Positions 1 through 23,533 of a stretch of DNA of 24,790 nt are shown here, piece after piece. Both the position numbers and the translations under genes were made by a program. The stretch's first letter is position 1, and the number at the start of each line of letters is the position of its first letter. This DNA comes from a virus (Duplodnaviria; Heunggongvirae; Uroviricota; Caudoviricetes). The stretch is taken from IMG/VR virus record IMGVR_UViG_2711768033_000002. One strand, given 5' to 3'. The notes below the pieces were generated by a model that saw only the letters and a program-made list of their open reading frames with translations, was not told the DNA's origin and searched no databases.

Positions 1-20
1 TAATTACCTCTCGCTTTTCT

Positions 21-49
21 GCAATAAAAAAGGCGCCATTTCTGGCGCC
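21..49 (-). terminator. Rho-independent terminator downstream of J
   Basis: Plus 32-37 ggcgcc, loop atttct, 44-49 ggcgcc; on the minus strand the hairpin is followed by TTTTTTATTGC (complement of plus 21-31). Lies 20 nt past the J stop (69-71). Confidence 0.55.
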
Positions 50-68
50 CGTATATGGGTTATAAAAT

Positions 69-3000
69 TCAGCTGATACTGATGCCTGCGGTGGCTTTCT
101 TCATCACCACAACCAGCAAATCGCTGATACTTGCTGTGGGATACCAGTCATTTACCAGCCATGCTGACACCGAAAACTCCAGCGTCATGTGGCCGTGACC
201 AGCTGGCATATCAATAACACCACTGTAAATCAGCGTATTATCCAGCGCGGTACGGTTATAAATTTCAGCACCATTTTTCTTCACTATCAGGCGGCATGAG
301 GAGTAAATATCAGTATGCTCTCTCTCATGTTTAGCACCGCTGAATGCCACCGCCGGAATAACAATCTGCCGGTCAAACGGCTGATCGTCATAAATCCTGA
401 CGGTAATGGTCCCTGATGGCCACCGCTCCGGTGCCCGGGAGTCCCGCGGGAAAGCCTTACCCACTGTTTTGACAATATCGCCTTCAATCTGGTTGGCTGA
501 CAGTTTCCCTTTAATCTGACAGTTCTCATTTATCGTAACGTTGTTGAGCGTCCCGGCGTTCGCATTCACACTGCCACTGATATCTGCATTTTTAGCGGTC
601 AGCTTTCCGTCCGGTGTCATGGAAAATGCAGGAGGATTACCGCCGCTGGTAATGGTGGGAGCCGTCAGATATTTCAGGAACACTTCATTCATGAATATCT
701 GATCACCCTGACCAACAAACATCGGTTTTGTGTTGCCATTTGCAGGATTAATCATCGCAATCCTGTCTGCCGCCAGCAGCACCTGACTCTGCATGCCGTC
801 GGGGGTGTTCTCAATACCGGCACCGATACCCGCAATATAAAGGCGTCCGTCCTGCATCTGCTGCAGCTTCACAGCCCACATGCTGTTCAGATTATTATTT
901 GTATCAACCTGAACCTTCTGTATCTGCTGGATCGCTGCACTCTGGTCTTCCAGTTTCTTATTGACGGTCTGTGTGATTTCATTGCTGACATCCGTAATGG
1001 ACGTCCTGATTTCAGCCAGGTCAGGCGCAAGCTGACCGTTATCAATCTGCGTCCACAGCTCCTGAGCCAGATGGGTTTTCCCTATCTCGCCTTTGAAAAA
1101 ATCCAGATAGCCGGATGCGTCATCACTCGGCTGACCAACAGCCTCCACGAATGCCGATTTGCCAACGGTGTTCACACTGCGAACGTAAAAATAATAATTA
1201 TGGCCCGGCCTGATATTGATACTGGCGGCTATCCAGTACAGCGCCGTACCAAGATAGCGGGCTGTGGTTTCAACCTGCCTGATATCCGCAATCCGCTTTT
1301 CCGAGAACCAGAACTCAAACTGTACCGTCGGGTCATAAACGGCAAGATGCGGCGTGGCGGTTATCTGAAAATAGCCCGGCGTCAGCTCAAGCCGCGACGG
1401 CACTGCAGGTGCGGCAATCCGGAACGATACCGATGCCGGATCGCCCTGCTGCCCCCACGCATTTACCGCCCGGACTGTCAGCCTGTAGTTCCCTGGCGCC
1501 AGCTGCGTGAAGCGGTATGTGGTTTCCGTCGTCCGGGCCGTGCTGACCAGCCGCTCACTGCCGTCATCCGCTGCCACGGTCAGGCGAAGCAGGAAGCTCA
1601 CGCCCTTCACCACCTTCGGCGTGTCCCAGCGCGCCAGCACCTGATATTCCCCGCTGTCTGCGGTGACTTCGGCGGTCAGGTGCTGCACCGCTGGCGGCGT
1701 GACACCATTCACCGTGCCGCTCTGGTCGCCGTCAAAGTGCGCCCCGTTATCCACGATGGCTTCTTTTTCCGGTACATGCTGCACGGCAGTGATGGCATAC
1801 GTGCCGTCATCGTTCTCACGGATACTCACACAGCGGAACAGGCGCTGGCGCAGCGTCGGCAGCTTCAGCCCCCACACACTGTATTCTGCAACGCCGTCAG
1901 GAACCCGGTTCACTTTCACCTTAAGTCCGTCGGTGACGGACTGAACCTCCACGCTGACCGGATTACCACTTCCGTCAACCAGGCTTATCAGCGTGGTACC
2001 GGAGGATGGCAGCGTGATTTCACGGTCGAGCGTCAGCGTCCGGGTCTGGCTGTTCACCGCCAGCACGCGACCACCGGTGCTGATACCGGCATAGTCATCA
2101 TCGCAGATTTCAATGACATCCCCCGGTACATGGCGAAGCCCTTCCGCACCCACGCTGAAGTCCACGGTCTGCGTCTCCAGCAGTTCCGTTTTAATCAGCC
2201 ACAGCCCGGCGCGGTGTGCCTGCCCCCGGCTGGTACAGCCAAAGGCATCCATCTTCGTGACATTACGACCGTAACGGGCAATGGCCTGCGTATCTTCAAC
2301 AAGCTCTGTCGCCGTCTCCCAGCCGTTGTCCGGGTCAATCCAGTTCACCTCAACGGCATTATGGCGGTCCTTCAGGGCGCTGAAGCTGTAGCGGAACGGC
2401 GCGCCATCATCCGGCATCACCACATTACTGCGGTTATAGGTCCACACCTTATCCGACGGTCGGTCCTGCACGAACGTCAGCGTCTGCCCGTTCCATACCG
2501 GCATACAGCGCATCGCCGAGCAGAAATCACTGAGCACATCCCACGCCTTGCGCTGTGTGGTCAGGTACGCATTACAGGTGATGCGCGGCTCCGTGCCGCC
2601 AAAGCCGTCCGGCACTGACTGGTCGCAGTACTGGCCGATGACATACAGCGCCCATTTGTCCACATCCGCCGCACCAAGACGTTTCCCCATGCCGTAGCGT
2701 GGATGGGTCAGCATATCCCACAGACACCAGGCCATGTTATTGCTGTATGCTGGCTTAAACGTTCCGTCCCAGATACCGCTGTATTGCCGAGTCTGCGGGT
2801 TATAGTTCGACGGCACCTGCAGAATACGCCCGCGCAGATGATAATTACGGCTCACCTGCTGGCTGCCGAACTGCTCCGAATCCACCTGTACGCCGACCAG
2901 TGCCGTGTTCGGGTAGCACTGTTTCACATCGATGATTTCGGTGTATGACGACCAGAGCGTTTTGTTCTGCAGCTGGTCTGTGGTGCTGTCCGGCGTCATC

Positions 3001-3548
3001 CTGCGCATCCGGATATTGAACGGGCGCGGCGGCAGGTTACCCACCACCACCGATGCCAGATACTGCGAGGTGGTTTTGCCTTTAATGGTGATGTCTTTTT
3101 CCGTCACCCAGCCACCATTACGCTGTATCTGAACCAGCAGGCGGACTTCCGACGGATTCCGGTCCCCCTTTGAGGTGGTTTCCACCAGTGCCTGCACACC
3201 GAAGGTAAAGCGCAGACGGTCGATGTTTGCCGACGTGATGGTCCTGGTAATCGGCGTGTCGTACTTCACTTCCGTACCCAGCACCGTCTCGGAGCCGGAG
3301 GATTCAAATCCCTCCGGCGGTGTCTGCTCCTGCTCACCGGCCCGGAACACCACCGTGACGCCGGATATATTGGTATTCCCCTCACTGTCCAGCACCGGCG
3401 TACTGTTCAGCAGCACGCTTTTTAATCCGTCCACCGGACCTTCAACCGGCCCTTCGCTGATGGCATCGATCACACTCAGCAGCTGCGTGGACTTCAGGTT
3501 GTCCTTCGCTTCGCGCGGGGTATGCCCCTTACTGCTGCCTTTACCCAT
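69..3548 (-). CDS. J: Host specificity / central tail fiber protein J (lambda gpJ family)
   Basis: 1159 aa ORF; N-terminus [24 protein letters not shown] matches lambda J as I recall it; ATG at 3546-3548, TGA at 69-71; last gene of the tail operon after I. Confidence 0.93.
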
Positions 3549-3570
3549 TCGTCATGCTCCATAAACGATA

Positions 3571-3590
3571 AAACCGCCCGGAGGCGGTTT
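3571..3590 (-). other. Stem-loop in the I-J intergenic gap
   Basis: aaaccgcc / cgga / ggcggttt perfect 8-bp stem; on the minus strand it is followed by TATCGTTTATGGAG and then the J ATG. Possible attenuator or processing site; function is inferred. Confidence 0.3.
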
Positions 3591-3608
3591 CACATAAAAC
3601 ATTTTGCA

Positions 3609-4250
3609 TCAGCGACCAATCACCACAACCTGACCACCATCCCCTTCGTCTGCCGTGCTGATCTCCTGAGAAACCACGCGTGACCCCACGCGCATTTCAC
3701 CGTACAGAACCGGCAGAACATTGCCCTGGGCAACCATGTTATCCAGTGAAGAAAAATAGGTATTCTGTTTGCCGTTATCCGTTGTCTGTGTGCGGGGGGT
3801 TTTGGGTTTAGGGGCCAGCATCTGTGCAACACCGCCAAGCGTCATACTGGCACCGAGAGAAAACAGCAGATTACTCGCCATAATTCCTACCCCCGGCATC
3901 CATATAGCAACCGCCATAACAGCCGCCCCCAGCACAGCCTGAAACACACCGCCACTTTTGGCTCCTGCCAGACGCGGCACGATATGGATCACGGCACCAT
4001 TTTCCAGCGGCTCATTAAGACGGGCAGACAATTCGGTTTCACCTGCATCACGCCCGGCAATGCGTACCTGGTACCAGCCGTCGCTCAGTTTCTGACGAAA
4101 TGCCGGGATCTGCATGGCCAGCGCCCGGATGGCTTCGGACCCCGTTTTCACTCGAAGGTCGATGCGGCGGCCAAATCGTTGTAAATCCCCGTAAAGGCAG
4201 ATGCGTGCCATGCCCGGTGACGCCAGAGGGAGTGTGTGCGTCGCTGCCAT
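3609..4250 (-). CDS. I: Tail assembly protein I (lambda gpI family)
   Basis: 213 aa; MAATHTLPLASPGMARICLYGDLQRFGRRIDLRVKTGSEAIRALA resembles lambda I; hydrophobic Gly/Ala-rich middle; overlaps K by about 100 nt as in lambda. Confidence 0.88.
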   Translation of the reverse strand: MAATHTLPLASPGMARICLYGDLQRFGRRIDLRVKTGSEAIRALAMQIPAFRQKLSDGWYQVRIAGRDAGETELSARLNEPLENGAVIHIVPRLAGAKSGGVFQAVLGAAVMAVAIWMPGVGIMASNLLFSLGASMTLGGVAQMLAPKPKTPRTQTTDNGKQNTYFSSLDNMVAQGNVLPVLYGEMRVGSRVVSQEISTADEGDGGQVVVIGR

Positions 4251-4891
4251 TTGTCGGTGTACCTCTCTCGTTTGCTCAGTTGTTCAGGAATATGGTGCAG
4301 CAGCTCGCTGTCACCACAGTAAATGGCGGCATGATTCGGCACCGATGAACCAAAACAGCACAGCAGCACATCGCCCGGCTGCGCCGCTGACAACGGCACC
4401 TGATACAGCCCTGTGGCCTCCAGATTATCCAGATAGAGATTCTGACCGTTACGCCACCAGTCATCCCCGCGATGAAAATCCGGCATCTCAATTCCCGCCA
4501 GATGGTAAGCGTCCCGGAACAGCGTGTAACAGTCCGTTACCCCGTGCTCAAAGCGCCGCCCGGTGAGATGCGGCACACAGCGGAATTTATGAATCGCCCC
4601 CCGGCAGACCAGCCACCACGGCAAATCACTCTGTACCTGCAGCCGCCGGTCGGCCTCACTCAGCCAGGGCAGACCACCGGGGTGGCTGTGGACCAGCGCC
4701 ACAATCTCTCTCTGCATTTCTGCACTCAGCCAGTCCTCCGGCGACATCCGGAAATACTCCTCCGGCTCACCGGAGATATTCACGCAGGGAAAATATCTTT
4801 CCTCCTCCGGCGTTCTCACCACGAAGCCGCACGACTCCGCTGGCGCACATCGCCGGGCGTGCGCCAGAATCGCTGATTCTGTCTCTGTCAT
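4148..4891 (-). CDS. K: Tail assembly protein K (JAMM/MPN plus NlpC/P60 domains)
   Basis: 247 aa; HSHPGGLPWLSEADR is a JAMM-type motif; C-terminal Cys (GVTDCYTLFRDAYH) and His (VPNHAAIY) fit NlpC/P60; start is 5 nt after the L stop. Confidence 0.88.
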   Translation of the reverse strand: MTETESAILAHARRCAPAESCGFVVRTPEEERYFPCVNISGEPEEYFRMSPEDWLSAEMQREIVALVHSHPGGLPWLSEADRRLQVQSDLPWWLVCRGAIHKFRCVPHLTGRRFEHGVTDCYTLFRDAYHLAGIEMPDFHRGDDWWRNGQNLYLDNLEATGLYQVPLSAAQPGDVLLCCFGSSVPNHAAIYCGDSELLHHIPEQLSKRERYTDKWQRRTHSLWRHRAWHASAFTGIYNDLAAASTFE

Positions 4892-4896
4892 GGGAT

Positions 4897-5595
4897 TTAC
4901 TGCGAAAGTTTGTTAATGGAAAGGAAGCTGCCAAAGTTGCCGACATTATTGCGAAACTTACAGCCACTCAGGCATTTGCTGCATTTATCCTTCGTGATAT
5001 CGGACGTCGGCTGGTCATATTCATCCGCGACCGCCGGACCGCTATAACCGCACTCATCGCCGCGATAGGTCCAGGTGCAGGTGTTGGCCAGCATGATACG
5101 TCCCGGAAAAACAGCGCCATCCGTTTCAGTCGGCGTGGACAGTACAAAAGAGGCACTGACCGCGCTCAGTTCGCTGCACTGCTCGATGCGCCAGCGGCTG
5201 ATCACCTCCTGCTCCGGATCGGCTTCGCTGTTTCCGTTGACGAAGTTCACCGCATCCAGAAAGCGGGCGTAAACCTTACGCCGGACCACCGTTCCGCCGA
5301 CCAGACTCTGCAGATCTTCCGCCATCCCGGTGATCATGCCGTGCAGGTTAGAGACCGTCAGTGTCGGACGGGCAGCACTGCCCTTGCCGTTCATCTCAAA
5401 TCCACTCCCCTGAATGGGATAGGCCTGATACTGCCGACTCTGCCAGGTGACAGACTCACCTTTTTCGTTCTGCTCATTACAGAAAAAGTAGCGATCCCCG
5501 CCTACCTCGGTCAGGTCGATTTCCCAGAGCACCACGCTGGCCGACTGCTCCGCACGAATGCATTCATTCAGCGTTTCCTGTTGTATGTCCTGCAT
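4897..5595 (-). CDS. L: Minor tail protein L (lambda gpL family)
   Basis: 232 aa; [31 protein letters not shown] resembles lambda L; C-terminal Cys cluster; start overlaps the M stop (TGATG). Confidence 0.9.
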   Translation of the reverse strand: MQDIQQETLNECIRAEQSASVVLWEIDLTEVGGDRYFFCNEQNEKGESVTWQSRQYQAYPIQGSGFEMNGKGSAARPTLTVSNLHGMITGMAEDLQSLVGGTVVRRKVYARFLDAVNFVNGNSEADPEQEVISRWRIEQCSELSAVSASFVLSTPTETDGAVFPGRIMLANTCTWTYRGDECGYSGPAVADEYDQPTSDITKDKCSKCLSGCKFRNNVGNFGSFLSINKLSQ

Positions 5596-5933
5596 CAGAT
5601 CACCACTTCGTCAAACTGACACGAAAAATCGGTATAGGTGATATGTTCTGTCGCTGACCACGTTCGACACACCACTCTGATTTTTCTGTTAATACCCGGC
5701 GGGCGCCAAAAAAAAGATTTATAGCCTTCATGCCGGGCTAAAAATTTTTCAAATGAATCACGTTCATTCGCCTCAACTTTGAAATCACAGGTGAAAACGC
5801 GCAGAGAATGATTAAGTCCATTTGGACTTCGTTGCTCATAACCATCGCCAAATCTTACAGTTTTTATCGATGGTTTATTTTCTGTTTTCATTCCATCCTC
5901 TGGTAACCAGTGAAATTCTTCCGTATTAGCCAC
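5595..5933 (-). CDS. M: Minor tail protein M homolog (diverged from lambda gpM)
   Basis: 112 aa; [10 protein letters not shown] and C-terminal FDEVVI resemble lambda M (VRFGDGYSQR...FEQVVN); GTG start at 5931-5933 overlapping the tape-measure stop; an alternative ATG start is at 5889-5891. Confidence 0.78.
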
Positions 5934-8900
5934 TTAACATTCCCCCATCACGTCGCATATTTAACAGATTGCCCTGCACCCGCTGATCAACCATCCCCAT
6001 AAGTGCTTTTATTGCCTGAGGGCCAATCTCTCCATTCTGGCCGTCATTTTGAATAGTGATTTGGTATACAGGGGCATAGGTAATATCTCCGCCTCCATTA
6101 CCACTTTTACTATTAATAGCTCTGACACCAAGAGAACCATCGGAAGTTCGTGTTAATGGCATAATGGCTTCCGGTCCAGCCTCACCAAAAACACCAGCCC
6201 CTTTTGCAAAAGCAAAAAATTGCGGGGAATCATAAATACCGTTCGAATACGTGCTCAATGACGGAGACTCATAAACACCGCCCTTTGCATTCGGAATAAA
6301 TTTACTAATAGCACTCCCGATAGTTCCTAAAATCCCCCCAGAAGAACTGTTACTAATGCTGTCGAAAATCCCAGTAATTGAAGCCTTTAATGCTATTCGA
6401 CTAAGATCCGAAATCACGGAAGTAGCGAAAGAACGAAAATTTGCCTTGCCTGTCGTGACAAAATCACCCAGCGCATCGGTCATCCCATCAAACATCTGAG
6501 TCGTGGTTGATTTTATCTGCTCACTGATATCCTTAGTGTCATCCAGCCAGTTATTGAATCCCTGGGAGGCACCACTAACCCAGTCTCCTGCCTGAATATC
6601 GAGCTGCTCGTTTTTCTGTCTGACAATTTCTTTTTCCCGTTCCAGAGCATCATTCAGAGCCTGCATTTTCTCTTGAAAAACATGATCTGACATTCCACGG
6701 GATTTATCTGCATAGTCACGTTCAAGTTGCAGACGCTGATTGTTATATCCATGTTCAATCCGCAGTAATTCCTGCTGGCGTTGCTGATTTTTATCGCCAA
6801 CCCCATAACCAGCAATCTGAATATCATACCCCTGCTGACGATTATCAATCGAAGCCTGCAATGAATCACGCCATGCTGTTATTTCGGCGGATTCCTTGAT
6901 TAGCCTGTTATTTTTTTCAATCGCAACATTTTTCTCCATCAACGTGGTTATTTCTTCCCGGTGTAAGAGAAGCGATTTCTGATCCTGGGTTAATTTCGAT
7001 GATGGTCGTGACTCTAGGTCGGCAATCCGCTGACGCCACTTAACCAGTTCCTGTTCAGAGGAACTTAATTTAACGGTCAACTCAGCTTGTGAACTTAGTA
7101 ACGCATTCTGTTGATTCAGATGATCAATCATTCGTTGGGCTGCATCATCAGAATAATCTTTCGCCTTTGGTTGCTTTGGATCTTTATAACGCTCATTTAT
7201 TTGAGCGATAAGATTATTATATTCTTCCTTTGAATACTGATTCTTTAGCTTTTCCAGTTTTGCAAGTTCACTAGCTCTCTGCTGCTCCCGGGTCTGATAT
7301 TGTTTTGAAAAGGCATCTGCTCTCTGTCTGAGTTCAATTCCTTCCTGTTGTCGCTTGTTGTAATCGTTTATTGATGAATTTAGTACGTCCTGAGCAATTT
7401 TTTCTGCTTGAAGTACGCCCAATTGCTGCTTTAATCGTGCCAGCCTTTTATTTTGAGCTCCGCCATCTCCAATGCCACCTAACCCGAAAACTCCGGATCG
7501 GGTATTTTTTTCTATTTCATCAATTTGACGGAGAACATCTGAGATTTTTTGATCAAGGGAGGCCTCACGGCCAATATCCAGCATGGAATCCCATGCCCAT
7601 TTTGCGGAGTCTGCGACAGCTTTCCATGCAGTCTCAAGATAACCAAGATTTTCTTTAATCTGGTTGGTGCGCTGGATCATTGAGGATGAGTATTCTTCTG
7701 TCGCAATGCGGGCGGCCTCCTGCTGGTTCCCTTCATCCTGTAGCGCCTTAATCTGGTTATAAGTCGCAAGTGTCAGAAAATGGTACTGATCATTAAGTTT
7801 TGATATGGCACTGACAGGATCCTTTGCAATTTCATTGAAGTCATTAACCAGTTGTTCGGTTGATATTCCTGTTACTTCGCTCGTTTTTACTATCGCTGTC
7901 GTCACTTGCTCCAGCGAACTGCTCGCTACCTTTCCCGAACGCACAAGCTGATTTAATACTGCCGCCGCAGCACCAGTTGTCGAATCAGCCGCATTCCCGG
8001 CACGTTGAGCTAAATCGCCCAATTGCCCGCTGGTTGTCCCCAACTGATTTCCGGTAAGAATAAGAGATTTATTAAATTCGTCCTGCTCCTGAGAGCCTTT
8101 ATAGTAAGCCAGTCCTAAGACCCCAACGGCTGCTGCGGCCAGGGTAAAAGGATTAATTAATCCCAGCACATAAGAACCTACCCCTTTGATCGCCGGGCCA
8201 ATCCCACCGAACATATCTTTTAGCTGGCCGCCCTGCTGCATTAACACCATAAATGGCGACTGACCAGTGGACAACCCAACAACAATATCCGTCATTTGTG
8301 CAGGCAACATGCGCATAGCAAAAGCCGTTTGTTTTGCCGACATTCCGGTTTTGCTTAATTGTGATTGAGTAACCTCAAGCTCACTCCGCATAGCACGAAG
8401 TTTTCCAGAAAGCTCCTCATACATTTCAGGAGAAAGCATCCCCTTAGCTTTTGCTTCATTGAGCTGTTTCTGTTGTTCTACCAGACGATTAAAAGCAGTT
8501 CCGACAGGATCAAGTTGAGCAATCAGACGTTGCAAAGCAACAACCTGTTCATCATGCGCTTTTGCTGCTTCTCGCTCTGCCTGAGCCTCTCCGGTAAGCT
8601 CTCGCCGTGTTTCCTGTATTTTTCGGCTATAATTCTCAAACTGAGAACCATTTATTTTCCCGGATGCAAACGCAGCATTAAGTTCATCATGCTGTTGTTC
8701 AAGATTTCTTAGCGCCGCAGCCAGAGGGTCGATCTTGTCCAGCATTCTTTGAAAGGCCTGAGCCTGCGCTTCCTGCTGGGCGGCAGCAAGTTTTCCGGCC
8801 TTCTCGGCTTCTCTCTGCGCTTGCGCAACCCCGCTCAATTCCTCTGTGGTTTCATTAAGTTTACGGACAAGAAATTCATATTCTTCTTTATCAATAAGCC

Positions 8901-9159
8901 CTTTATCGAAAAATTTCTTTAATTCAGAATAGCGTCGACCGACAGTATCAATTGCGGCACCAACTGGATCAATAGCTGCTTTTAATTTTGCGAGCGCGTT
9001 CTTCTCATCTTCTGTTGCCTTAGTCACTTTCCCTGCGCTATTTGCAGCAGTTTCCCCAGCCTGCGTCATTTTGACTAATGAGGAGGTCAGATTGTCAGCA
9101 TTATTTTTCGCTCCAGTGCTATCAATAATTATTGCGAGACGCGAGGTTTGCTCTGCCAT
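5926..9159 (-). CDS. Tail tape measure protein
   Basis: 1077 aa; coiled-coil-rich N-terminal half, hydrophobic Gly-rich segment ([18 protein letters not shown]), position between G/GT and M; ATG 9157-9159 preceded by AGGAG; TAA 5926-5928. Confidence 0.9.
8365..8980 (-). repeat. Three diverged tandem repeats of about 65 aa inside the tape measure N-terminal region
   Basis: Translation shows [20 protein letters not shown]...EELSG / [20 protein letters not shown]...RELTG / [20 protein letters not shown]...SELE; DNA coordinates are approximate. Confidence 0.5.
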
Positions 9160-9171
9160 TTATTAAAACTC

Positions 9172-9204
9172 CTGACAACAAAAAACCCACCGCGAAGTGG
9201 GTTT
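9172..9204 (-). terminator. Terminator-like hairpin just upstream of the tape measure gene
   Basis: Plus 9183-9190 aaacccac / loop cgcgaa / 9197-9204 gtgggttt; on the minus strand followed by TTTTTTGTTGT, then AGGAG and the tape-measure ATG. Confidence 0.45.
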
Positions 9205-9324
9205 CAGGCGACATAATAGTAGATATAGCGATTACGAGGCCACGCAATGCTTTTCTCCAGGAGCATCATCGATTTAATTAAAGACACCATCACATCTCTG
9301 TAACAGAGTGTACGTAATTAACAA

Positions 9325-10094
9325 CTACACACACTGCTCCTGAAAATACTGGTCATCCAGTGCAAAGATCACTGCTTCAAATTCATCGCGCTCAATCAAT
9401 ACCGGATGAGTGGCTAAATATTCATTTATCTCTGTCAGAGATAAAGGCAAAGGCACCCCAGCCATTCCAGCATAACGTCGGGCACGGGATATTACCGAAT
9501 AGGCGTACAACAACTCCTTAAGCACCGGGTCTATTTCTGGTTCCGGTATCGGTGGCAACCTGAGTTTTTCTCGCTTCCATCTTGCCTTTTCCCCCCTTTC
9601 TCCCCCGAACTCCGATAACCACCGCTGGGCAGCTATGGCTTTTTTATCGTATCCTGCTTCTGCTGCTCTTTACCCTGGGCGATGCTGGCTGCTTCTGCAA
9701 GGATCTGCCAGTACAACTCTGGATTCTGCTTAAGCAGCGCGATCCCTCGTTCTGCCGTATATTCCAGTGCAACCTCAACACCATTAACCAGTTCACCAAC
9801 CCCTTTCCAGTCTTTCAGCAGATAACGAGCGGCATTATCAATGAGTAAATCATCAACAGAATCCACCTCGGAAACCTTTGAAATATCAAACTCCTTCGTT
9901 CCGACGTGCAAACTGGCATCCATTTTCTCAATGTGGCGACGGATTAATGCATTACGGGAGCGATACTGATCGTTATCGCTGCTTGCCACCAACAGTTTTA
10001 ACCCGTCTACAGGTTTTAAGTCCTTCATTGGCGTAAACCAGCGTTCTCCACCAATGATAATTTTCTGATTAAGAATAAACATCCATAACCTCAT
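9325..10094 (-). CDS. Tail assembly chaperone GT-like fusion made by -1 programmed ribosomal frameshift
   Basis: The -1 frame is open from the slippery site (AIAAQRWLSEFGGERGEKARWKREKLRLPPIPEP...) to TAG at 9325-9327; the downstream ORF has no ATG of its own (track start is TTG). Confidence 0.8.
9633..10094 (-). CDS. Tail assembly chaperone (gpG-like), unshifted product
   Basis: 153 aa ORF between the major tail and tape measure genes; ends ...DTIKKP with TAG at 9633-9635. Confidence 0.85.
   Translation of the reverse strand: MRLWMFILNQKIIIGGERWFTPMKDLKPVDGLKLLVASSDNDQYRSRNALIRRHIEKMDASLHVGTKEFDISKVSEVDSVDDLLIDNAARYLLKDWKGVGELVNGVEVALEYTAERGIALLKQNPELYWQILAEAASIAQGKEQQKQDTIKKP
9639..9645 (-). 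promoter_or_regulatory. Slippery heptamer A AAA AAG for the G/GT -1 frameshift
   Basis: Minus-strand ACG ATA AAA AAG CCA TAG; the heptamer sits 2 codons before the gpG-like stop. Confidence 0.8.
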
Positions 10095-10142
10095 TCAATG
10101 CGTCCCCCTGTAGGGCAGTACCACAGGAGGAATAACGGAAAA

Positions 10143-11105
10143 TCAACTAATCGCCTCAGCACTGGCTTTTGCGATCACGGCAGCCGGGGAATTTTTTTTT
10201 CTGGTTATCGTAGGTGCTTCATCTGCTGCGGTAATGCTCAATTGAACCTGGATAATGTCGCTATTACCCCCATCAGGCCATTCACCTGACACCTGAACCT
10301 TCGGGAAACTGAAAGTGTATGCCCCCTCTCCATTCGAAAGCGTGAAGCTGAACGGAACTGTTTCTCCAGTCAGTGTTTTACTCCAGATTTCCCACGCGGC
10401 TTTAGACCATGAAAGCGTCACCGTACCGGACGGTGTAAAAGTAGTCGGAATATTTGCTCCTGCATAAGGCGAGCCAGTCCCGATACAACGCTGTGTCTGG
10501 AGTTTGTTATCGAACTGAATATCAAAACTGTCGATACAAAAACCGTTACCTCCGGCAACACCATTCAGGCTTACTGCTGAAACCTCCTTAAACGAATAAC
10601 GTAGCTTTCCTGCACTATCCACAGGTTCGCCTTTGATAAAATTCGTATCATCGGCCTTTGATTCCCAGTCCAGTCCGGCAAAGGTTACGGTCGCTGTAAT
10701 ATCGCCGTCGTTAGGGATCTGCATTTTCCATGAGCCAACCTGCGCTCCTCTGACGACAGAGGCAATTCCGACATCGGACGCATAGGTCGCCAGAGAAAAT
10801 GTTATTCGCTCATTCCCCATTGTCAGAGAATCGCCTGACCATTCCGCGCCGAAACAGGATGCAAGAAAATCATCATGTTGACCCCAGCGAAATTTGGTAC
10901 CAACATCACCGCCGACATCCACAGTGCCAGGCGTCGCCCCCTGAGCCATCCGGGAGCCACCAATCTCATTATTTTCGCCTTTATTCTGGGTGGGTTTTAC
11001 TCCCCAGCTTGTGCGTTTTAATAAACTCCAGTCACCACTTGCTGGCGTAGTGCCTGCAACCGTCTCCCGGATAAATGCCGAGATAACCTTTGCACCTGAA
11101 CTCAC
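10143..11105 (-). CDS. Major tail (tube) protein
   Basis: 320 aa, Gly/Thr/Ser-rich, immediately upstream of the G/GT chaperones; GTG start 11103-11105 preceded by GGAGG with 5-nt spacing and an in-frame TAG just upstream. Confidence 0.8.
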   Translation of the reverse strand: MSSGAKVISAFIRETVAGTTPASGDWSLLKRTSWGVKPTQNKGENNEIGGSRMAQGATPGTVDVGGDVGTKFRWGQHDDFLASCFGAEWSGDSLTMGNERITFSLATYASDVGIASVVRGAQVGSWKMQIPNDGDITATVTFAGLDWESKADDTNFIKGEPVDSAGKLRYSFKEVSAVSLNGVAGGNGFCIDSFDIQFDNKLQTQRCIGTGSPYAGANIPTTFTPSGTVTLSWSKAAWEIWSKTLTGETVPFSFTLSNGEGAYTFSFPKVQVSGEWPDGGNSDIIQVQLSITAADEAPTITRKKNSPAAVIAKASAEAIS

Positions 11106-11131
11106 AGGAGCCTCCTATGTCATTAATTGCG

Positions 11132-11524
11132 CTAGAGCGCGCGATATGGAATTTGAAGATTAAGCTGGAACCAGCCATTCTTTTCGCCAACGGCTATTGA
11201 GGAAACAGCCTGGTAACTGAGACGATCGTCATCCTGAAACTCAAACAGTTCCCGCAATTTATCGGCTGTCTCAGTAATGAGTTTTGAACCAGAACCTGCG
11301 GGGACAAATAACTGAATAATGATTATCCCCGTGCGATAAACAATCGGCCCCGCGCCAATTTCATTAACTCCAGCCTGCCCGGGAATATTACTTAACCGCG
11401 CCCAGATTAACTTACCGGAAGGATCGAACGTTGGCGCGTTCGGATACAATACGTCTTTTCCATCAATAATCGTCTGTGCCGTCATTCTGGAAATAACCGT
11501 ATTTCTGATTTCAGTAAACGTCAT
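11132..11524 (-). CDS. Tail completion / tail terminator-like protein
   Basis: 130 aa ORF directly upstream of the major tail gene; ATGA overlap with the preceding gene; assignment is by synteny only. Confidence 0.55.
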   Translation of the reverse strand: MTFTEIRNTVISRMTAQTIIDGKDVLYPNAPTFDPSGKLIWARLSNIPGQAGVNEIGAGPIVYRTGIIIIQLFVPAGSGSKLITETADKLRELFEFQDDDRLSYQAVSSIAVGEKNGWFQLNLQIPYRAL

Positions 11525-11901
11525 TTGTAAGCCTGTAAAACACCATGAAAAGCGTTGGCATACACGCCAGTTGGCGCTTGTTGTGAATGACCGTTTTCAA
11601 GAGCCTCTGCATAAGGAAGGTTATTCTGGATATAAATAACTCCGTAATTTGCAGCTTTCGAAATAACCCCGATCCCACGCTGAACAGCAATCGTACCGTT
11701 CGGATCCACGTTATCAGATATACCAAAATCGGGATGCTGTAACGACACCAGGTTGTTATTTCTGAAACGTCCGGTATCAACCGGAGCAGCAATATCAATA
11801 GCAGTAAGAATCTGAATAGCGATGTAGCGAATCTTCAGCCCTACATCTTCCTCAATCATCCCGGCAAATATTGACGGTTCTATATCCCATGCCTTTGCCA
11901 T
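11521..11901 (-). CDS. HK97 gp10-family head-tail joining protein
   Basis: 126 aa; PVDTGRFRNN and NNLPYAEALENG resemble the HK97 gp10 family signature as I recall it; located in the neck gene block. Confidence 0.6.
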   Translation of the reverse strand: MAKAWDIEPSIFAGMIEEDVGLKIRYIAIQILTAIDIAAPVDTGRFRNNNLVSLQHPDFGISDNVDPNGTIAVQRGIGVISKAANYGVIYIQNNLPYAEALENGHSQQAPTGVYANAFHGVLQAYK

Positions 11902-12285
11902 TTACGCTCTCCTTAACTGGATAGAGTAAACTGATGCGGAAGGATCTACACTTGCTGTAATTACCTCGTATCGTTGTAACTGCCTTGATACAGGATCATA
12001 AATCTCAATAATATGGTCGACAGCTGGTTTATCCGTAACCTCGCATACCAGAGCGGTTAATTTAAGGTCACCATGCAAAATATTAATCCCATCAATTCTG
12101 CCCAGCTTATAACGTGTCAACACGCCTCGCCCGGTATAGATTGCGGTGGATTCGCCGCCAGTTTCCGTCACAGGATCCCAGTGCCGGTGCGTAACGTAAG
12201 AACCAGAAAAATCACTCACGGCGTCCGCTAAATCCTCATCAAAAGCAGCGGCAACCTCTGACTGAATCTCTTCACGAAGCCCCAT
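11902..12285 (-). CDS. Head-tail adaptor / head closure protein (neck)
   Basis: 127 aa ORF tightly packed between connector-like and gp10-like genes; assignment by synteny. Confidence 0.5.
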   Translation of the reverse strand: MGLREEIQSEVAAAFDEDLADAVSDFSGSYVTHRHWDPVTETGGESTAIYTGRGVLTRYKLGRIDGINILHGDLKLTALVCEVTDKPAVDHIIEIYDPVSRQLQRYEVITASVDPSASVYSIQLRRA

Positions 12286-12680
12286 TATCCCCCCCTCACA
12301 ACCCTGACTTGTGAGCGACTAAGTCCGTACGGTTTCAGCAGTGCTATCGCAAGCTGTAAATCGGGTTCAAGCAATGCAGTGCTGTTTGCTGGCAACTCAG
12401 AAAATGATTTCGATACACTGACCCCGTCAGCCGACACGGCTTTACTGATAACAACGCCAGAATCATTTTTCTGCTGAAACAACTTACCGAATGAGGCAAT
12501 TCTGGCTGCATATGCTCCCGCAAGTTTTACCTCTTCCGGAATACGGGATGGGTTAATTTTCAGGTTGAAGCCATTAAGCCAGGCATTAGCCATTAAAACA
12601 GCTTTATTTTTAGCGTTCTCACTCGTCCAGGCGTTCCCAAACGCATTATCAACGTCATCACAGGTCACGTAAGTGATCAT
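12285..12680 (-). CDS. Head-tail connector protein (gp6-like)
   Basis: 131 aa; first gene after the capsid terminator and small ORF; AGGAG-type RBS upstream of the ATG at 12678-12680. Confidence 0.55.
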   Translation of the reverse strand: MITYVTCDDVDNAFGNAWTSENAKNKAVLMANAWLNGFNLKINPSRIPEEVKLAGAYAARIASFGKLFQQKNDSGVVISKAVSADGVSVSKSFSELPANSTALLEPDLQLAIALLKPYGLSRSQVRVVRGG

Positions 12681-12683
12681 GTG

Positions 12684-12860
12684 TTACTCCTGAGTTTTCC
12701 AGCCCATAGCCTTCCAGTTGTCAACTTCATCAGGATGAACATTAGCGATAGTTGGTGCGCCGGGAAACATCTGATAATCGGTCACCATAACCACTAACTC
12801 AATTTGCGTTTTTTGTGCGGCTTCACGCTGTGCTCTTTGCTCTTTAGTTAATCCGGCCAT
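12684..12860 (-). CDS. Small hypothetical protein (58 aa), absent from the ORF track
   Basis: ATG at 12858-12860 after a GGGGGG run; translates MAGLTKEQRAQREAAQKTQIELVVMVTDYQMFPGAPTIANVHPDEVDNWKAMGWKTQE; TAA at 12684-12686 lies 3 nt before the next gene's ATG. Confidence 0.4.
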   Translation of the reverse strand: MAGLTKEQRAQREAAQKTQIELVVMVTDYQMFPGAPTIANVHPDEVDNWKAMGWKTQE

Positions 12861-16125: not shown

Positions 16126-17512
16126 TGATTTCCATCAACATTACACTCTGATTTTTTAATTCATCGATCACATCCTCTGGACGGGAATCCTGATCGATAA
16201 ATTTCAACGCCTGCAACACCCGAACCGCATCAATCTGACGTATATCACCGCCCTGACGCAATGACTGAACAGCCAGCGCGGAGGATGAGTCAAACACCTG
16301 GGCAGATACATCCAGTTCAGTGCGCACATCCACATTGCCACCGCAACTCTCTCCGCTCCATTCCGCCATTATCTGGAGAATATTATCGAGGGCATCTTCG
16401 AGGGAGTTCGCCATTGTATAAAGCGGCGAGTGTTCCTGCATCCGCTCTTCATTAGTCTGATCAACAGATTTGGTGGATGTATTTTCAGCCCGCAGAAGTT
16501 TAGCGCCGGCATGACGCATCTGATTTTCCAGCTTCTCAAGTGATGTTTCGCCAGATTCTATCGCTGCGCCACTATGTTCAACATATTCGAGGCCATTTTT
16601 TGTTCTGTCCTCAAAAATCGTAGCCGTGGATGCACCAACCGTCAGTTCTTCATTCCTGTCCAGCCCGTAGGCCACCAGCAATGGAACGCGGGCAACATGA
16701 AGAATATTGTCCTGCTCGCTCTGGCTTTGCCAGTGCTTGATATTCAGCAAGCCAAGATTAAGCAATGGCGGTGTACCACGCATAAACCCTGTTTTCTTCG
16801 TATACAGTGTTACCAGAGGAATATCATCACGGCTGGTATTCCATGACTCATGAAGCATCCAGACAGATTCGCCATTAGTACCTTCGCTGCGTCGATAAAT
16901 TTCTACTCGACGGGGCATAATATGGCGGATCTGCTCCACCTTCTTCTGCCCGAAATCATCACCATCAATAATGATGACCTCTTTTATACGCAAATCAGTG
17001 AGAACAACTTTCCCTTTTTCAACTTTCGATTTCCATCCAATAACCTGGCGTGGATTCAGCATCGTAACGTACGGGCGACCACCGGCCGCGTTTTCATCGG
17101 CTTTTGTCCGAATCTCGTTCATATCCGTTCGTGGATAGTCCACCAGCGCATGTGCCACACCATACTGAAATGCGAGACTGAAAAATTGCTGCGCCCACAC
17201 ATCCAGTCGGCTCCCCTCCATGTCGATATTTTCTGCATATTCCCTGATTTTTTCCGGCGTTTCCTCACTCAATACTGTCGGCTCTGCAAATATGCGCCCA
17301 ATATTTTGTTTGATGCTTTCTTCATACACAGGAAGTAACGTAGCCACAGACAGGCGTTTTTTATAAGCGTCTTCATCTTCATTAGGCCATTTGGGGAGAT
17401 AATTTTCCCCCTGCCTGCGCATTTCAAGCGTACCGCCCATCAATGCGTCGTTAATATCCCACGCCTCCAGCATATCGTTATAGTCGAGGTTGGGTGTTGA
17501 TATATCAGCCAT
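16106..17512 (-). CDS. Portal protein
   Basis: 468 aa ORF immediately after the large terminase gene (TAA-TT-ATG coupling); size and acidic C-terminal region are typical of portals. Confidence 0.8.
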   Translation of the reverse strand: MADISTPNLDYNDMLEAWDINDALMGGTLEMRRQGENYLPKWPNEDEDAYKKRLSVATLLPVYEESIKQNIGRIFAEPTVLSEETPEKIREYAENIDMEGSRLDVWAQQFFSLAFQYGVAHALVDYPRTDMNEIRTKADENAAGGRPYVTMLNPRQVIGWKSKVEKGKVVLTDLRIKEVIIIDGDDFGQKKVEQIRHIMPRRVEIYRRSEGTNGESVWMLHESWNTSRDDIPLVTLYTKKTGFMRGTPPLLNLGLLNIKHWQSQSEQDNILHVARVPLLVAYGLDRNEELTVGASTATIFEDRTKNGLEYVEHSGAAIESGETSLEKLENQMRHAGAKLLRAENTSTKSVDQTNEERMQEHSPLYTMANSLEDALDNILQIMAEWSGESCGGNVDVRTELDVSAQVFDSSSALAVQSLRQGGDIRQIDAVRVLQALKFIDQDSRPEDVIDELKNQSVMLMEINDANRE

Positions 17513-21938: not shown

Positions 21939-23396
21939 TTAGGAGCGCCAAAAAAAACCTGAAAACAATATAATAACAGGATAAATTTCAAGGCGACCAA
22001 GAATCATAGCTATGCACATTAAACATTTTGCAATGTCATTAAGCACTCCGAATGACGATGCAGTAGCCCCAAAACCTAATCCCATATTATTAATACATGC
22101 AGCCACTGTTGCAAATGATGTAAGAAAATCATATCCCATACCATTTAACACCAGTATAAAAAACACCGTGAAGAGAGTATAAAGAAAAAAGAAACTCCAT
22201 ACAGACCTCATTACACGATCTGTAACTATCTTCCCTCCTACATTTACACTCAACAACGCTCTGGGATGAGAAAGCTGATTTATCTCGTGTTTGCTTTGTT
22301 TGAAAAGTATAAGAAATCGAAGTGACTTAATTCCACCACAAGTTGAACCTATACATCCCCCAAAGAAACTTGACAACAGCAAAAACACTATCGTGTGCGT
22401 GGGCCAACTTGCATAATCCTGCGTAGCTAAACCATTATCAGTGAGCATGGAGCTGGCAAGAAAAAACGAATGAATAAAACTTCCATGCAAGTCATACATA
22501 CCTATATGCCAGACCTGGAAAGAGGTAACAATGATCACCCCTAAGGCTATTAACAGAAAGAAACGAAGTTCAATATCTCTGATTAAAGGTTTTATCGTTT
22601 TCCTGCTAATAACAATATACCAAAGAGTGAAGTTGAAAGCCGATAGCAGGGAAAAAGAACCAGCCACCAGCTCAACCAAATAGTTATTAAAATATCCGAT
22701 ACTCTCGCTATGAGTTGAGAAACCACCAAGCGAAACTGTGGAAATCCCGTGACAAATAGCATCAAACAAAGGCATTCCTGCAAGTCTATAACAGACAATA
22801 CAAGCAATACCTAATAAAGAATAAGTTATCCACAGTGTCCGTGACGTATCGGCCAGGCGGGGAGTGAGTTTGTCATCCTTAAATGGCCCCGGCATTTCTG
22901 ACTGATAAAGCTTTGCACCACCAATACCCAATAATGGCAATACAGCAACCGCCAGAACAATAACTCCTAAACCACCTATAAAATTTAACTGTGACCGATA
23001 GTACAAATATGCCCGAGGTAATGAACTAACATCATCAATTACAGTTGCTCCTGTTGTTGTTATTCCAGAAACCCCTTCAAACAGAGCATCAATGAACGTT
23101 AAATTAAGTTCTGAGTCAATCCATAAAGGGAATGCACTAATAACAGAAAACAAAATCCAAAACATTACAATTATAATAAACCCATCACGGGTACGTAATT
23201 GAATGCCAGATTTCTTAGTTGTATACCACGCTCCGCCACCAATGCAAAAAAATATAACGAAAGTTATAAAGAAAACGAACAGGCTTTTTTCTTTATAAAA
23301 CAATGCTACAACCATTGGTGGCAACATTGAAAGACTATAGAGCCAAACCAGGAACCCACACATATGAGTAACAACTCTTACATGAGATGTATTCAT
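21939..23396 (-). CDS. trkG: TrkH/TrkG-family potassium uptake membrane protein
   Basis: 485 aa from ATG 23394-23396 (MNTSHVRVV...); many TM segments; four TrkH-type filter motifs (SGITTTGATV, LGGFSTH, GGCIGSTCGG, NMGLGFG); markedly AT-rich; the prophage context matches the known location of trkG in Rac. Confidence 0.85.
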   Translation of the reverse strand: MNTSHVRVVTHMCGFLVWLYSLSMLPPMVVALFYKEKSLFVFFITFVIFFCIGGGAWYTTKKSGIQLRTRDGFIIIVMFWILFSVISAFPLWIDSELNLTFIDALFEGVSGITTTGATVIDDVSSLPRAYLYYRSQLNFIGGLGVIVLAVAVLPLLGIGGAKLYQSEMPGPFKDDKLTPRLADTSRTLWITYSLLGIACIVCYRLAGMPLFDAICHGISTVSLGGFSTHSESIGYFNNYLVELVAGSFSLLSAFNFTLWYIVISRKTIKPLIRDIELRFFLLIALGVIIVTSFQVWHIGMYDLHGSFIHSFFLASSMLTDNGLATQDYASWPTHTIVFLLLSSFFGGCIGSTCGGIKSLRFLILFKQSKHEINQLSHPRALLSVNVGGKIVTDRVMRSVWSFFFLYTLFTVFFILVLNGMGYDFLTSFATVAACINNMGLGFGATASSFGVLNDIAKCLMCIAMILGRLEIYPVIILFSGFFWRS

Positions 23397-23533
23397 ATCT
23401 AAATATTCTTTCAATTATAACCACCTTGCTGCAATATTATGATTATACTGTATAAAATTTAACTCCTCTTAGATCTTACTTCACTGTTCCTTATGAAACA
23501 ATCATCAAAATGAATCATATTGTAGTTAAGATT
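23397..23533 (-). promoter_or_regulatory. AT-rich putative promoter region for trkG
   Basis: Minus strand has two TATAAT hexamers (cagTATAATcat and ggtTATAATtga) within 50 nt of the trkG ATG; no good -35 match was found, so this is tentative. Confidence 0.3.

Follow-up and report, generated by a model that had tools for sequence, protein, structure and literature searches.

Tail genes on the two sides of the M/L border

The DNA analyzed here, a stretch of 24,790 nucleotides (nt) filed as IMG/VR record IMGVR_UViG_2711768033_000002 (below, the window), comprises the virion-assembly operon of an intact lambdoid prophage of E. coli that belongs to the Rac family. Every long open reading frame (ORF) is encoded by the minus strand; together they make up a phage late operon, whose last part consists, in the order of transcription, of the genes for the tape measure protein (TMP), the distal tail protein M and the tail tip proteins L, K, I and J. 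This work concerns the border between M and L, where base composition and database similarity both break sharply. The break is real, and it is an ordinary module boundary of a common Rac-family prophage. The genes and features around it are as follows (Pfam or PDB matches in parentheses, amino acids abbreviated aa):

69..3548, minus strand: J, central tail fibre or tip attachment protein, 1159 aa (FNIII-A_GpJ, Phage-tail_3, Ig_J, Ig_J_second, Phage_Tail_Tip, Ig_GpJ_C)
3609..4250, minus strand: I, tail tip insertion/assembly protein, 213 aa (Lambda_tail_I)
4148..4891, minus strand: K, tail tip assembly protein, 247 aa (Prok-JAB and NLPC_P60)
4897..5595, minus strand: L, hub protein, 232 aa (Phage_tail_L, E 7e-98)
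5590..5617, minus strand: conserved island at the joint, comprising the last M codons, the Shine-Dalgarno-like sequence GGTGGTGA and the overlap of the M stop with the L start (TGATG)
5595..5933, minus strand: M, distal tail protein of the Rac type, 112 aa (Phage_min_tail PF05939, E 1.2e-31; PDB 8iyk_M, E 2e-25)
5926..9159, minus strand: TMP, 1077 aa, lambda gpH family (TMP_2, residues 267-471; TMP_4, 671-748; Tape_meas_lam_C, 858-932)
8350..9015, minus strand: three tandem repeats of ~74 aa each, TMP residues 49-270, found by shuffle-calibrated local alignment

The family models for L, K, I and J were all matched well above the Pfam cut-offs, and the order and overlaps of the four genes are like those in lambda and phage 21, as in a lambda-type cassette. 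L, the first gene of this GC-rich exchanged cassette, is 93.5% identical in aa sequence to its lambda counterpart; the values for K, I and J are 96.5%, 79% and 83%, and J is 92.6% identical to the J of phage 21. In the comparison with phage PhiR49_1 the aa identities were 100% (I), 99.6% (K) and 98.7% (L). At the DNA level window 1250-5500 is 91-98% identical to lambda, except for the centre of I (80-86%). An earlier note on this DNA had described L, K, I and J as close lambda homologues in high-GC DNA, and this description agrees with the range of 79-96.5% aa identity and with a GC content of 0.58 between 1051 and 5594.

M, encoded between the TMP gene and L, is a divergent member of the lambda gpM family. 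It is 39-42% identical in aa sequence to the M proteins of lambda (~42%, so that "distantly lambda-like", as it had been called, is apt), phage 21 and PhiR49_1, 50% identical to that of BP-4795, and 75-93% identical to the Rac-type M of Citrobacter, of the metagenome contig L010 and of E. coli 0-4. The motif FGDGYxQRxPxGLN (residues 28-41) is invariant. An AlphaFold2 monomer model of M built from a 10-sequence alignment was of low confidence (mean pLDDT, the predicted local distance difference test score, 62; below 50 for residues 1-42) and placed strands at residues 46-54, 72-76, 85-96 and 100-109 and a helix at 58-68. By homology, M probably forms a hexameric ring that serves as an adaptor and joins the L/J ring to the tube, the tube protein being the partner of its upper face.

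The GC content of 0.58 on the L-J side falls to 0.445 between 5618 and 9159. At third codon positions (GC3) the values are 0.67 for J, 0.57 for I, 0.67 for K and 0.674 for L, compared with 0.345 for M and 0.385 for TMP. The maximum-likelihood GC change point in 1250-9159 is at position 5557 (2-lnL support interval 5542-5595) with a log-likelihood ratio (LLR) of 76.9, whereas 500 shuffles of 50-nt blocks gave a mean LLR of 5.0 and a maximum of 13.6. The composition step is thus far beyond chance and sits at the M/L boundary; GC and codon composition across the tail genes are non-uniform in the way that the earlier note had predicted. Its further statement that the TMP and M block is noticeably AT-richer is correct relative to L-J. 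Relative to the rest of the operon the difference is slight, 0.445 as against 0.473 from T to the neck genes and 0.484 in the head genes, and for this reason it is the L-J block that must be regarded as the compositional outlier. In lambda and BP-4795, H and M match L-J in their high GC content (GC3 0.62-0.66), and the step is therefore particular to the Rac-type lineage.

Evidence for exchange of the L-J cassette

In megablast searches with hundreds of lambdoid phages and ~4300 E. coli genomes, the region from J to L was covered at ~92-95%, and the matches ended at window position 5617, 5606, 5598 or 5547. PhiR49_1 is particularly informative. Its G, T, H and M are of the lambda type (96-100% aa identity to lambda), it matches window 2250-5500 at 99.8-100% nt identity, its M is only 41% identical, and the match ends at 5617, with a switch to the lambda allele at ~5503-5557. 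The recombination joint proposed near the M/L boundary is therefore upheld: the lambdoid matches end there, and a phage that shares L-K-I has an M of 41% identity.

The relationships of M and L are incongruent. M belongs with E. coli 0-4, L010 and a Citrobacter sedlakii prophage, whereas L groups with lambda, phage 21 and PhiR49_1 (93.5-98.7% aa) and is 78% identical to its counterparts in L010 and Citrobacter. Contig L010 carries an AT-rich L (GC3 0.38) beside a Rac-type M (0.27) and a TMP gene of 0.39. M and TMP of L010 are closer to those of the window (83-85%) than is its L (78%), which argues that M and TMP are not simply fast-evolving.

Crossovers were mapped with mismatch maps of five Rac-family copies and PhiR49_1. 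From the tube gene through the first ~115 nt of L, identity between the window and the Rac copies JNQH498 and 683R6 is 98-100%; the switch is at ~5479, and identity then falls, to 93.7% for the body of L and 86.5-87.8% for I. The copy EC_T6 is 98-100% identical throughout, except for I (87.2%). E. coli 0-4 combines a Rac-type M with a lambda-allele L, and both E. coli 0-4 and A41 carry further L-J alleles. The recent crossovers fall within the first ~120 nt of L (window ~5479-5590), at ~5479, 5503-5557 and 5572-5590. Exchange is ongoing, as L-J alleles vary in otherwise near-identical Rac copies.

The island at the joint, ~23 nt with the sequence GTGGTGA[A/T]CTGATGCAGGA, is common to the Rac, lambda and BP-4795 types of M and is the only stretch of M that aligns among them at the DNA level; the 65-70% nt identity that global alignment assigns to unrelated M genes is an artefact of aligning them and was disregarded. 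Chi sites (GCTGGTGG) occur on the minus strand at 16672, 17140, 18450 and 22664, in the portal, terminase and trkG genes. Stimulation of exchange at the joint by Chi was considered and dropped, there being no such site near M/L. The four Chi sites compare with ~0.8 expected, and 2 of 100 shuffles reached this number.

The earlier note had also proposed that best hits of all tail genes to one phage genome at similar identity would speak against a mosaic. Salmonella phage SPF_0923 and vB_EcoS-683R6 match all of them at ~98%, which to the letter is that outcome. It follows only that the mosaic is fixed in a sequenced family, and the test was ill-posed. An assembly chimera as the source of the junction was ruled out by its presence in 708 complete genomes.

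Variation is also found within the cassette. The centre of I (window 3500-4250) is its most variable part, with 82-88% nt identity between Rac copies that elsewhere agree at 94-100%. The I protein is 10 residues shorter than lambda gpI. Of J, the N-terminal two thirds are part of the lambda-type cassette with its high GC content, and the C-terminal third (window 1-1050) is a separate, AT-richer allele, with a GC content of 0.49 as compared with 0.58 in 1051-5594 and a change point at 1374 (LLR 17). The 3' third of the gene (window 1-1374, receptor-binding) is ~70-77% identical at the nt level to lambda, phage 21 and PhiR49_1, and 91% to E. coli 0-4. These values mark a further mosaic joint inside J and suggest that its C-terminal third is exchanged separately from L-K-I, as an allele for host range.

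The tape measure gene, the gap and the rest of the operon

TMP aligned with lambda gpH in PDB 8iyk_H at E 2.8e-70 (residues 268-1077 against 55-850), which places it in the gpH family. It is 28% identical in aa sequence to gpH over residues 270-1077, and its last ~55 residues are conserved with gpH. The length of 1077 aa and the repeat-rich N-terminus given in the earlier note were confirmed, the three ~74-aa repeats being real but degenerate. Their pairwise local alignment scores were 86-111 compared with shuffle means of ~26 (z 12.6-18.8, 0/1000 shuffles as good), and the units align without gaps; control segments gave z ~0. The repeats were missed by Tandem Repeats Finder in 5500-9400 and by a BLAST self-comparison of TMP. 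They account for the 224-residue excess over lambda gpH, as they comprise 222 residues and the gpH alignment begins at 268-270. By the known rule for gpH, the length of the tape measure sets that of the tail. It is thus a reasonable inference that a TMP of 1077 aa would correspond to ~40 rings and a tube of ~170 nm, as scaled from the 32 rings of 42 Å (~134 nm) for 853 residues in lambda (PMC10721106), i.e. to a tail longer than that of lambda.

Residues 1-737 of TMP are common to Klebsiella-type prophages; tblastn matches to Klebsiella phage ST16-OXA48phi5.1 and to the E. coli 167 prophage both stop at 737. The C-terminal third (window 5926-6948) travels with the Rac-type M, and TMP is 85% identical in aa sequence to that of L010 over residues 138-1077. 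Beyond the end of the Klebsiella-type similarity, at residue ~737 (window 6948), those phages carry DUF1833/TipJ tips. This arrangement suggests that an older joint inside the TMP gene, at ~737, may have coupled a foreign shaft to a lambda-family C-terminus and M. In the TMP gene of the E. coli 167 prophage (6622-9960) there is a patch of 99% nt identity to window 8250-9100, the repeat-bearing N-terminus; outside this patch the prophage is ~68% identical to the window, and its tip is non-lambda. The patch looks like a recent intragenic conversion between unrelated prophages.

Upstream of TMP the operon contains the following features:

9160..9324, minus strand: non-coding gap of 165 nt between T and TMP, with a terminator-like hairpin at 9205..9182
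9648-9325, minus strand: T, tail assembly chaperone, open in the -1 frame (weak Pfam Phage_TAC_18 match)
9633-10094, minus strand: G (YdaY), 99.9% identical to K-12 ydaY; the Citrobacter homologue matches PF27119 Phage_YdaY
10143..11105, minus strand: tail tube protein, 320 aa (Pfam Phage_tube_2, E 9e-32), 71% aa identity to the tube protein of the Klebsiella phage

A second joint, at the gap between GT and TMP, had been proposed in the earlier note and found no support. Composition is continuous across the gap: a GC change-point scan of 5618-12700 placed its strongest point, itself weak, at 7557, inside TMP (LLR 6.1, reached by 3% of shuffles). For the tail terminator, the tube, G, T and TMP 1-737, aa identity to a single Klebsiella phage, ST16-OXA48phi5.1, is even at 63-71% and the genes are syntenic, and the same shaft genes are 63-72% identical to the E. 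coli 167 prophage. In E. coli, TMP and the G/T/tube genes co-occur in 693, 708 and 712 genomes (three overlapping queries).

The hairpin in the gap, found by terminator scan and folding, has a 10-bp GC-rich stem followed by a U-run and lies ~15 nt upstream of the TMP Shine-Dalgarno sequence. It could lower the expression of TMP and the tip genes relative to the tube gene, or it could be the remnant of an inserted gene. In relatives the gap is a variable slot for extra genes (morons): Ail/Lom occupies it in E. coli 0-4, strain 167 has a zinc-ribbon ORF there, and in Citrobacter it contains a KilA-N/Arc/antirepressor cluster. G and T are two overlapping frames upstream of the TMP gene. The G frame contains a slippery heptamer, A_AAA_AAG, at 9645-9639, and the two are predicted to be a canonical -1 frameshift pair. 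No significant match was obtained between the tube protein and V of phage 21, and none was detectable between G, T or V and the lambda proteins.

The whole late operon is transcribed from the minus strand in this order:

First part, minus strand: lysis genes, a low-GC trkG moron, a ParB-like gene, small and large terminase
Second part, minus strand: DUF4055 portal, Mu-F-like protein, DUF6651 protein in the scaffold position, capsid of the P22_CoatProtein family
Third part, minus strand: neck proteins, Phage_tail_terminator_5, Phage_tube_2 tube, G, T, the 165-nt gap
Last part, minus strand: TMP, M, L, K, I, J
21939-23414, within the first part: trkG, 100% aa identity to TrkG annotated in vB_EcoS-683R6

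The head had been described as non-lambda and HK97-style. It is non-lambda. The second term does not apply, given the P22_CoatProtein capsid, the DUF6651 scaffold, the Mu-F-like protein, the DUF4055 portal and a T4-type terminase; in an HK97-style head an HK97 capsid would be found with a protease and without a scaffold, and no match to a prohead protease model was obtained among the ten proteins scanned.

Assignment to the Rac family follows from trkG together with near-identity to K-12, where ynaA (tmpR) and ydaY match window 8225-9984 at 99.9%. This trkG is the known Rac moron that encodes a potassium transporter. It lies between the lysis genes and the ParB-like gene, with a GC content of 0.378 and a GC3 of 0.32. 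The GenBank records of SPF_0923 and vB_EcoS-683R6 match the window at ~98%, and at least 80% of the window was found in one place in 679 of 5426 complete E. coli genomes (~12.5%), in several at 100% identity (strains LD22-1 and ATCC 43896 are examples). The Rac early region (racR, recET, kil, sieB) and the Rac attachment site fall outside the 24.8 kb covered. A plus-strand ORF of 515 aa (1071-2618) runs antisense to J, itself a well-supported gene, in a GC-rich region; most likely it does not code for protein. A scan of the whole window against Rfam gave no match at the gathering thresholds. Literature searches on vB_EcoS-683R6, SPF_0923 and PhiR49_1, made to find micrographs or any account of an intact Rac-type phage, yielded one prophage-prediction preprint only.

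Origin of the joint and comparison with known systems

We consider it very probable that the window joins a Rac-family module, extending from the head genes to M, to an exchanged L-J cassette, and that the M/L border is the edge of homology. Head, neck, tube, the G/GT chaperones, the long TMP and M would constitute one coherent, moderately AT-rich module. The GC-rich L-K-I-J cassette, 92-100% identical at the DNA level in most lambdoid prophages and phages of E. coli, would be replaced repeatedly by general homologous recombination, presumably by host RecA or by Red/RecET-type enzymes tolerating ~10% divergence. Homology with other prophages sets in only where L starts, so that exchange would stop before M and TMP, leaving a fixed M/L edge and a sharp step. 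As the joint between GT and TMP is unsupported, the polarity is the reverse of that in the earlier note: L-K-I-J was probably swapped into a coherent Rac-type shaft module. The direction of each individual transfer is something that we infer.

Lambda is known to acquire DNA of Rac and other defective K-12 prophages by homologous recombination in tracts of 88-95% identity, mainly through Red-beta and without a single hotspot (PMC3945230). The crossover pattern fits homologous recombination inside the cassette, as shown for lambda and the K-12 defective prophages, and not a site-specific event at the island. The chimera would be functional as M is an adaptor ring, one face of which would bind its own tube. 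In lambda, the gpM hexamer ring binds the tube via the beta-sandwich and the gpL/gpJ ring via E-loops, and the C-terminal helix of gpH rests on the gpI tripod (PMC10721106). M and the C-terminus of TMP would then be the parts that need to fit the shared tip, in agreement with the conserved M motif and the conserved TMP end.

Three other explanations of the joint were weighed. TMP and M could be a foreign AT-rich insert bounded by two joints, at the GT/TMP gap and at the M/L border. They do have the lowest GC content of the structural genes (0.445); in E. coli 0-4, which carries Ail/Lom in the gap, they are 93% identical to the window as compared with 96-98% for the tube, G and head genes; the 99% nt patch of the E. 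coli 167 prophage ends near the TMP start, and in several relatives the gap holds insertions. This origin is nevertheless improbable: there is no significant GC step at the gap (the change point at 7557 reached an LLR of 6.1), the TMP GC3 of 0.385 is within the neck/head range of 0.38-0.55, the Klebsiella-type identity is even (63-72%) from the terminator to TMP residue 737 with gene order kept, TMP and the G/T/tube genes co-occur in E. coli genomes, and nothing upstream of TMP is lambda-like. Still less credit can be given to the idea that there was no recombination at all, M and TMP evolving much faster than L-K-I-J and composition reflecting gene-specific constraint. The L-K-I genes of the window are 99.8% identical at the nt level to those of PhiR49_1, yet the M proteins of the two agree at only 41%; in the comparison with L010, identity is higher for M and TMP (83-85%) than for L (78%); GC3 jumps by 0.33 within ~50 nt, while H and M of lambda and BP-4795 are GC-rich; and Rac copies that are near-identical in M and TMP carry L-J alleles 6-13% apart. 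What can be said for it is that between lambda and BP-4795 M is 45% and H 34-42% (partial) identical, compared with 77% for L and 86% for K.

The ~23-nt island at the M stop and L start might be a dedicated linker and a preferred site of exchange. It is shared by three otherwise unalignable M types, and many database matches end inside it, at 5598-5617; BLAST matches must end there, however, because homology does. The mappable recent crossovers are inside L and at differing sites (~5479, 5503-5557, 5572-5590), translational coupling and protein constraint suffice to explain the Shine-Dalgarno-like sequence, the stop/start overlap and the terminal F-[DE]-x-V-V of M, and there is no Chi site near the joint. 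A linker role is therefore unlikely. A different emphasis, possible but rather doubtful, would make the C-terminal third of TMP together with M a portable adaptor that docks a non-lambda shaft onto the pan-lambdoid L-K-I-J tip, the decisive joint being the older one near residue 737 (window ~6948). If this were true, compatibility with the cassette would require only the M loop motif and the last ~55 TMP residues, and there would be a simple rule for building chimeric siphophage tails.

Several points weigh against the exchange of L-J into a Rac-family module, or limit how far it can be taken. The L-J of Citrobacter is 80-90% identical in aa sequence to lambda compared with 41% for M, with a smaller GC3 step (0.47 to 0.61). 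Because Citrobacter shows a similar contrast, the joint is either old or was re-made in several hosts, and does not correspond to a single dated event. The cassette common to PhiR49_1 and the window fits transfer in either direction. The compatibility argument draws solely on lambda structures and sequence conservation, the placing of the conserved M motif in the E-loop being plausible. Finally, the prophage is known here from its genes and not as virions.

That lambdoid phages exchange modules has stood in textbooks for decades, and the joint is an ordinary, already sequenced case of it in a very common prophage family. Its value as a discovery is small, as the identical sequence is present in annotated prophages of hundreds of E. 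coli genomes. The case is instructive as a clean example of the defective Rac prophage of K-12 as it was before its deletions, and it presents the L-K-I-J host-range cassette as a unit that circulates among the prophages of E. coli while the M ring stays fixed as the adaptor. It also illustrates that a composition step can mislead as to which of the two sides arrived later. For the engineering of phages, the suggestion is that tip cassettes are swappable at the M/L border between phages with unrelated tubes.

The closest known system is the Rac prophage of K-12 (trkG, ynaK, ydaY, ynaA/tmpR, lomR, stfR), which has trkG, a ParB-like ynaK homologue and the lysis genes in the same order. It differs in having lost the region from the tube to the small-terminase side as well as the C-terminal two thirds of TMP through J; it keeps the N-terminal third of TMP (to residue ~312), the gap, T and most of ydaY. 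Since the deletions removed everything from TMP residue ~312 through J, the K-12 copy gives no hint of the M/L joint. Lambda H-M-L-K-I-J (8IYK/8IYL/8K35; PMC10721106) has the same gene order and the same Pfam family for each gene, whereas its tube, G/T chaperones and whole head belong to unrelated sequence families. PhiR49_1 (PV340568) shares the same allele of L-K-I and of the N-terminal part of J, and phages 21, mEp332 and cdtI match at ~94%; in all four, M, H, G, T, V and the head are of the lambda type. ST16-OXA48phi5.1 (MK416013) and the E. coli 167 prophage represent the converse, with the same shaft (terminator, Phage_tube_2, YdaY-type G, T and TMP 1-737), no similarity past TMP 737, and tips of the DUF1833 and TipJ families in place of M-L-K-I-J. 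Although the loci studied in work on lambdoid mosaicism were others (stf/tfa, lysis and terminase genes) and the M/L exchange is deduced here by comparing sequences, the same near-identical tracts, exchange at 88-95% identity and variable crossovers have been described there (De Paepe et al. 2014, PMC3945230; tail-gene co-transfer, PMC9836094).

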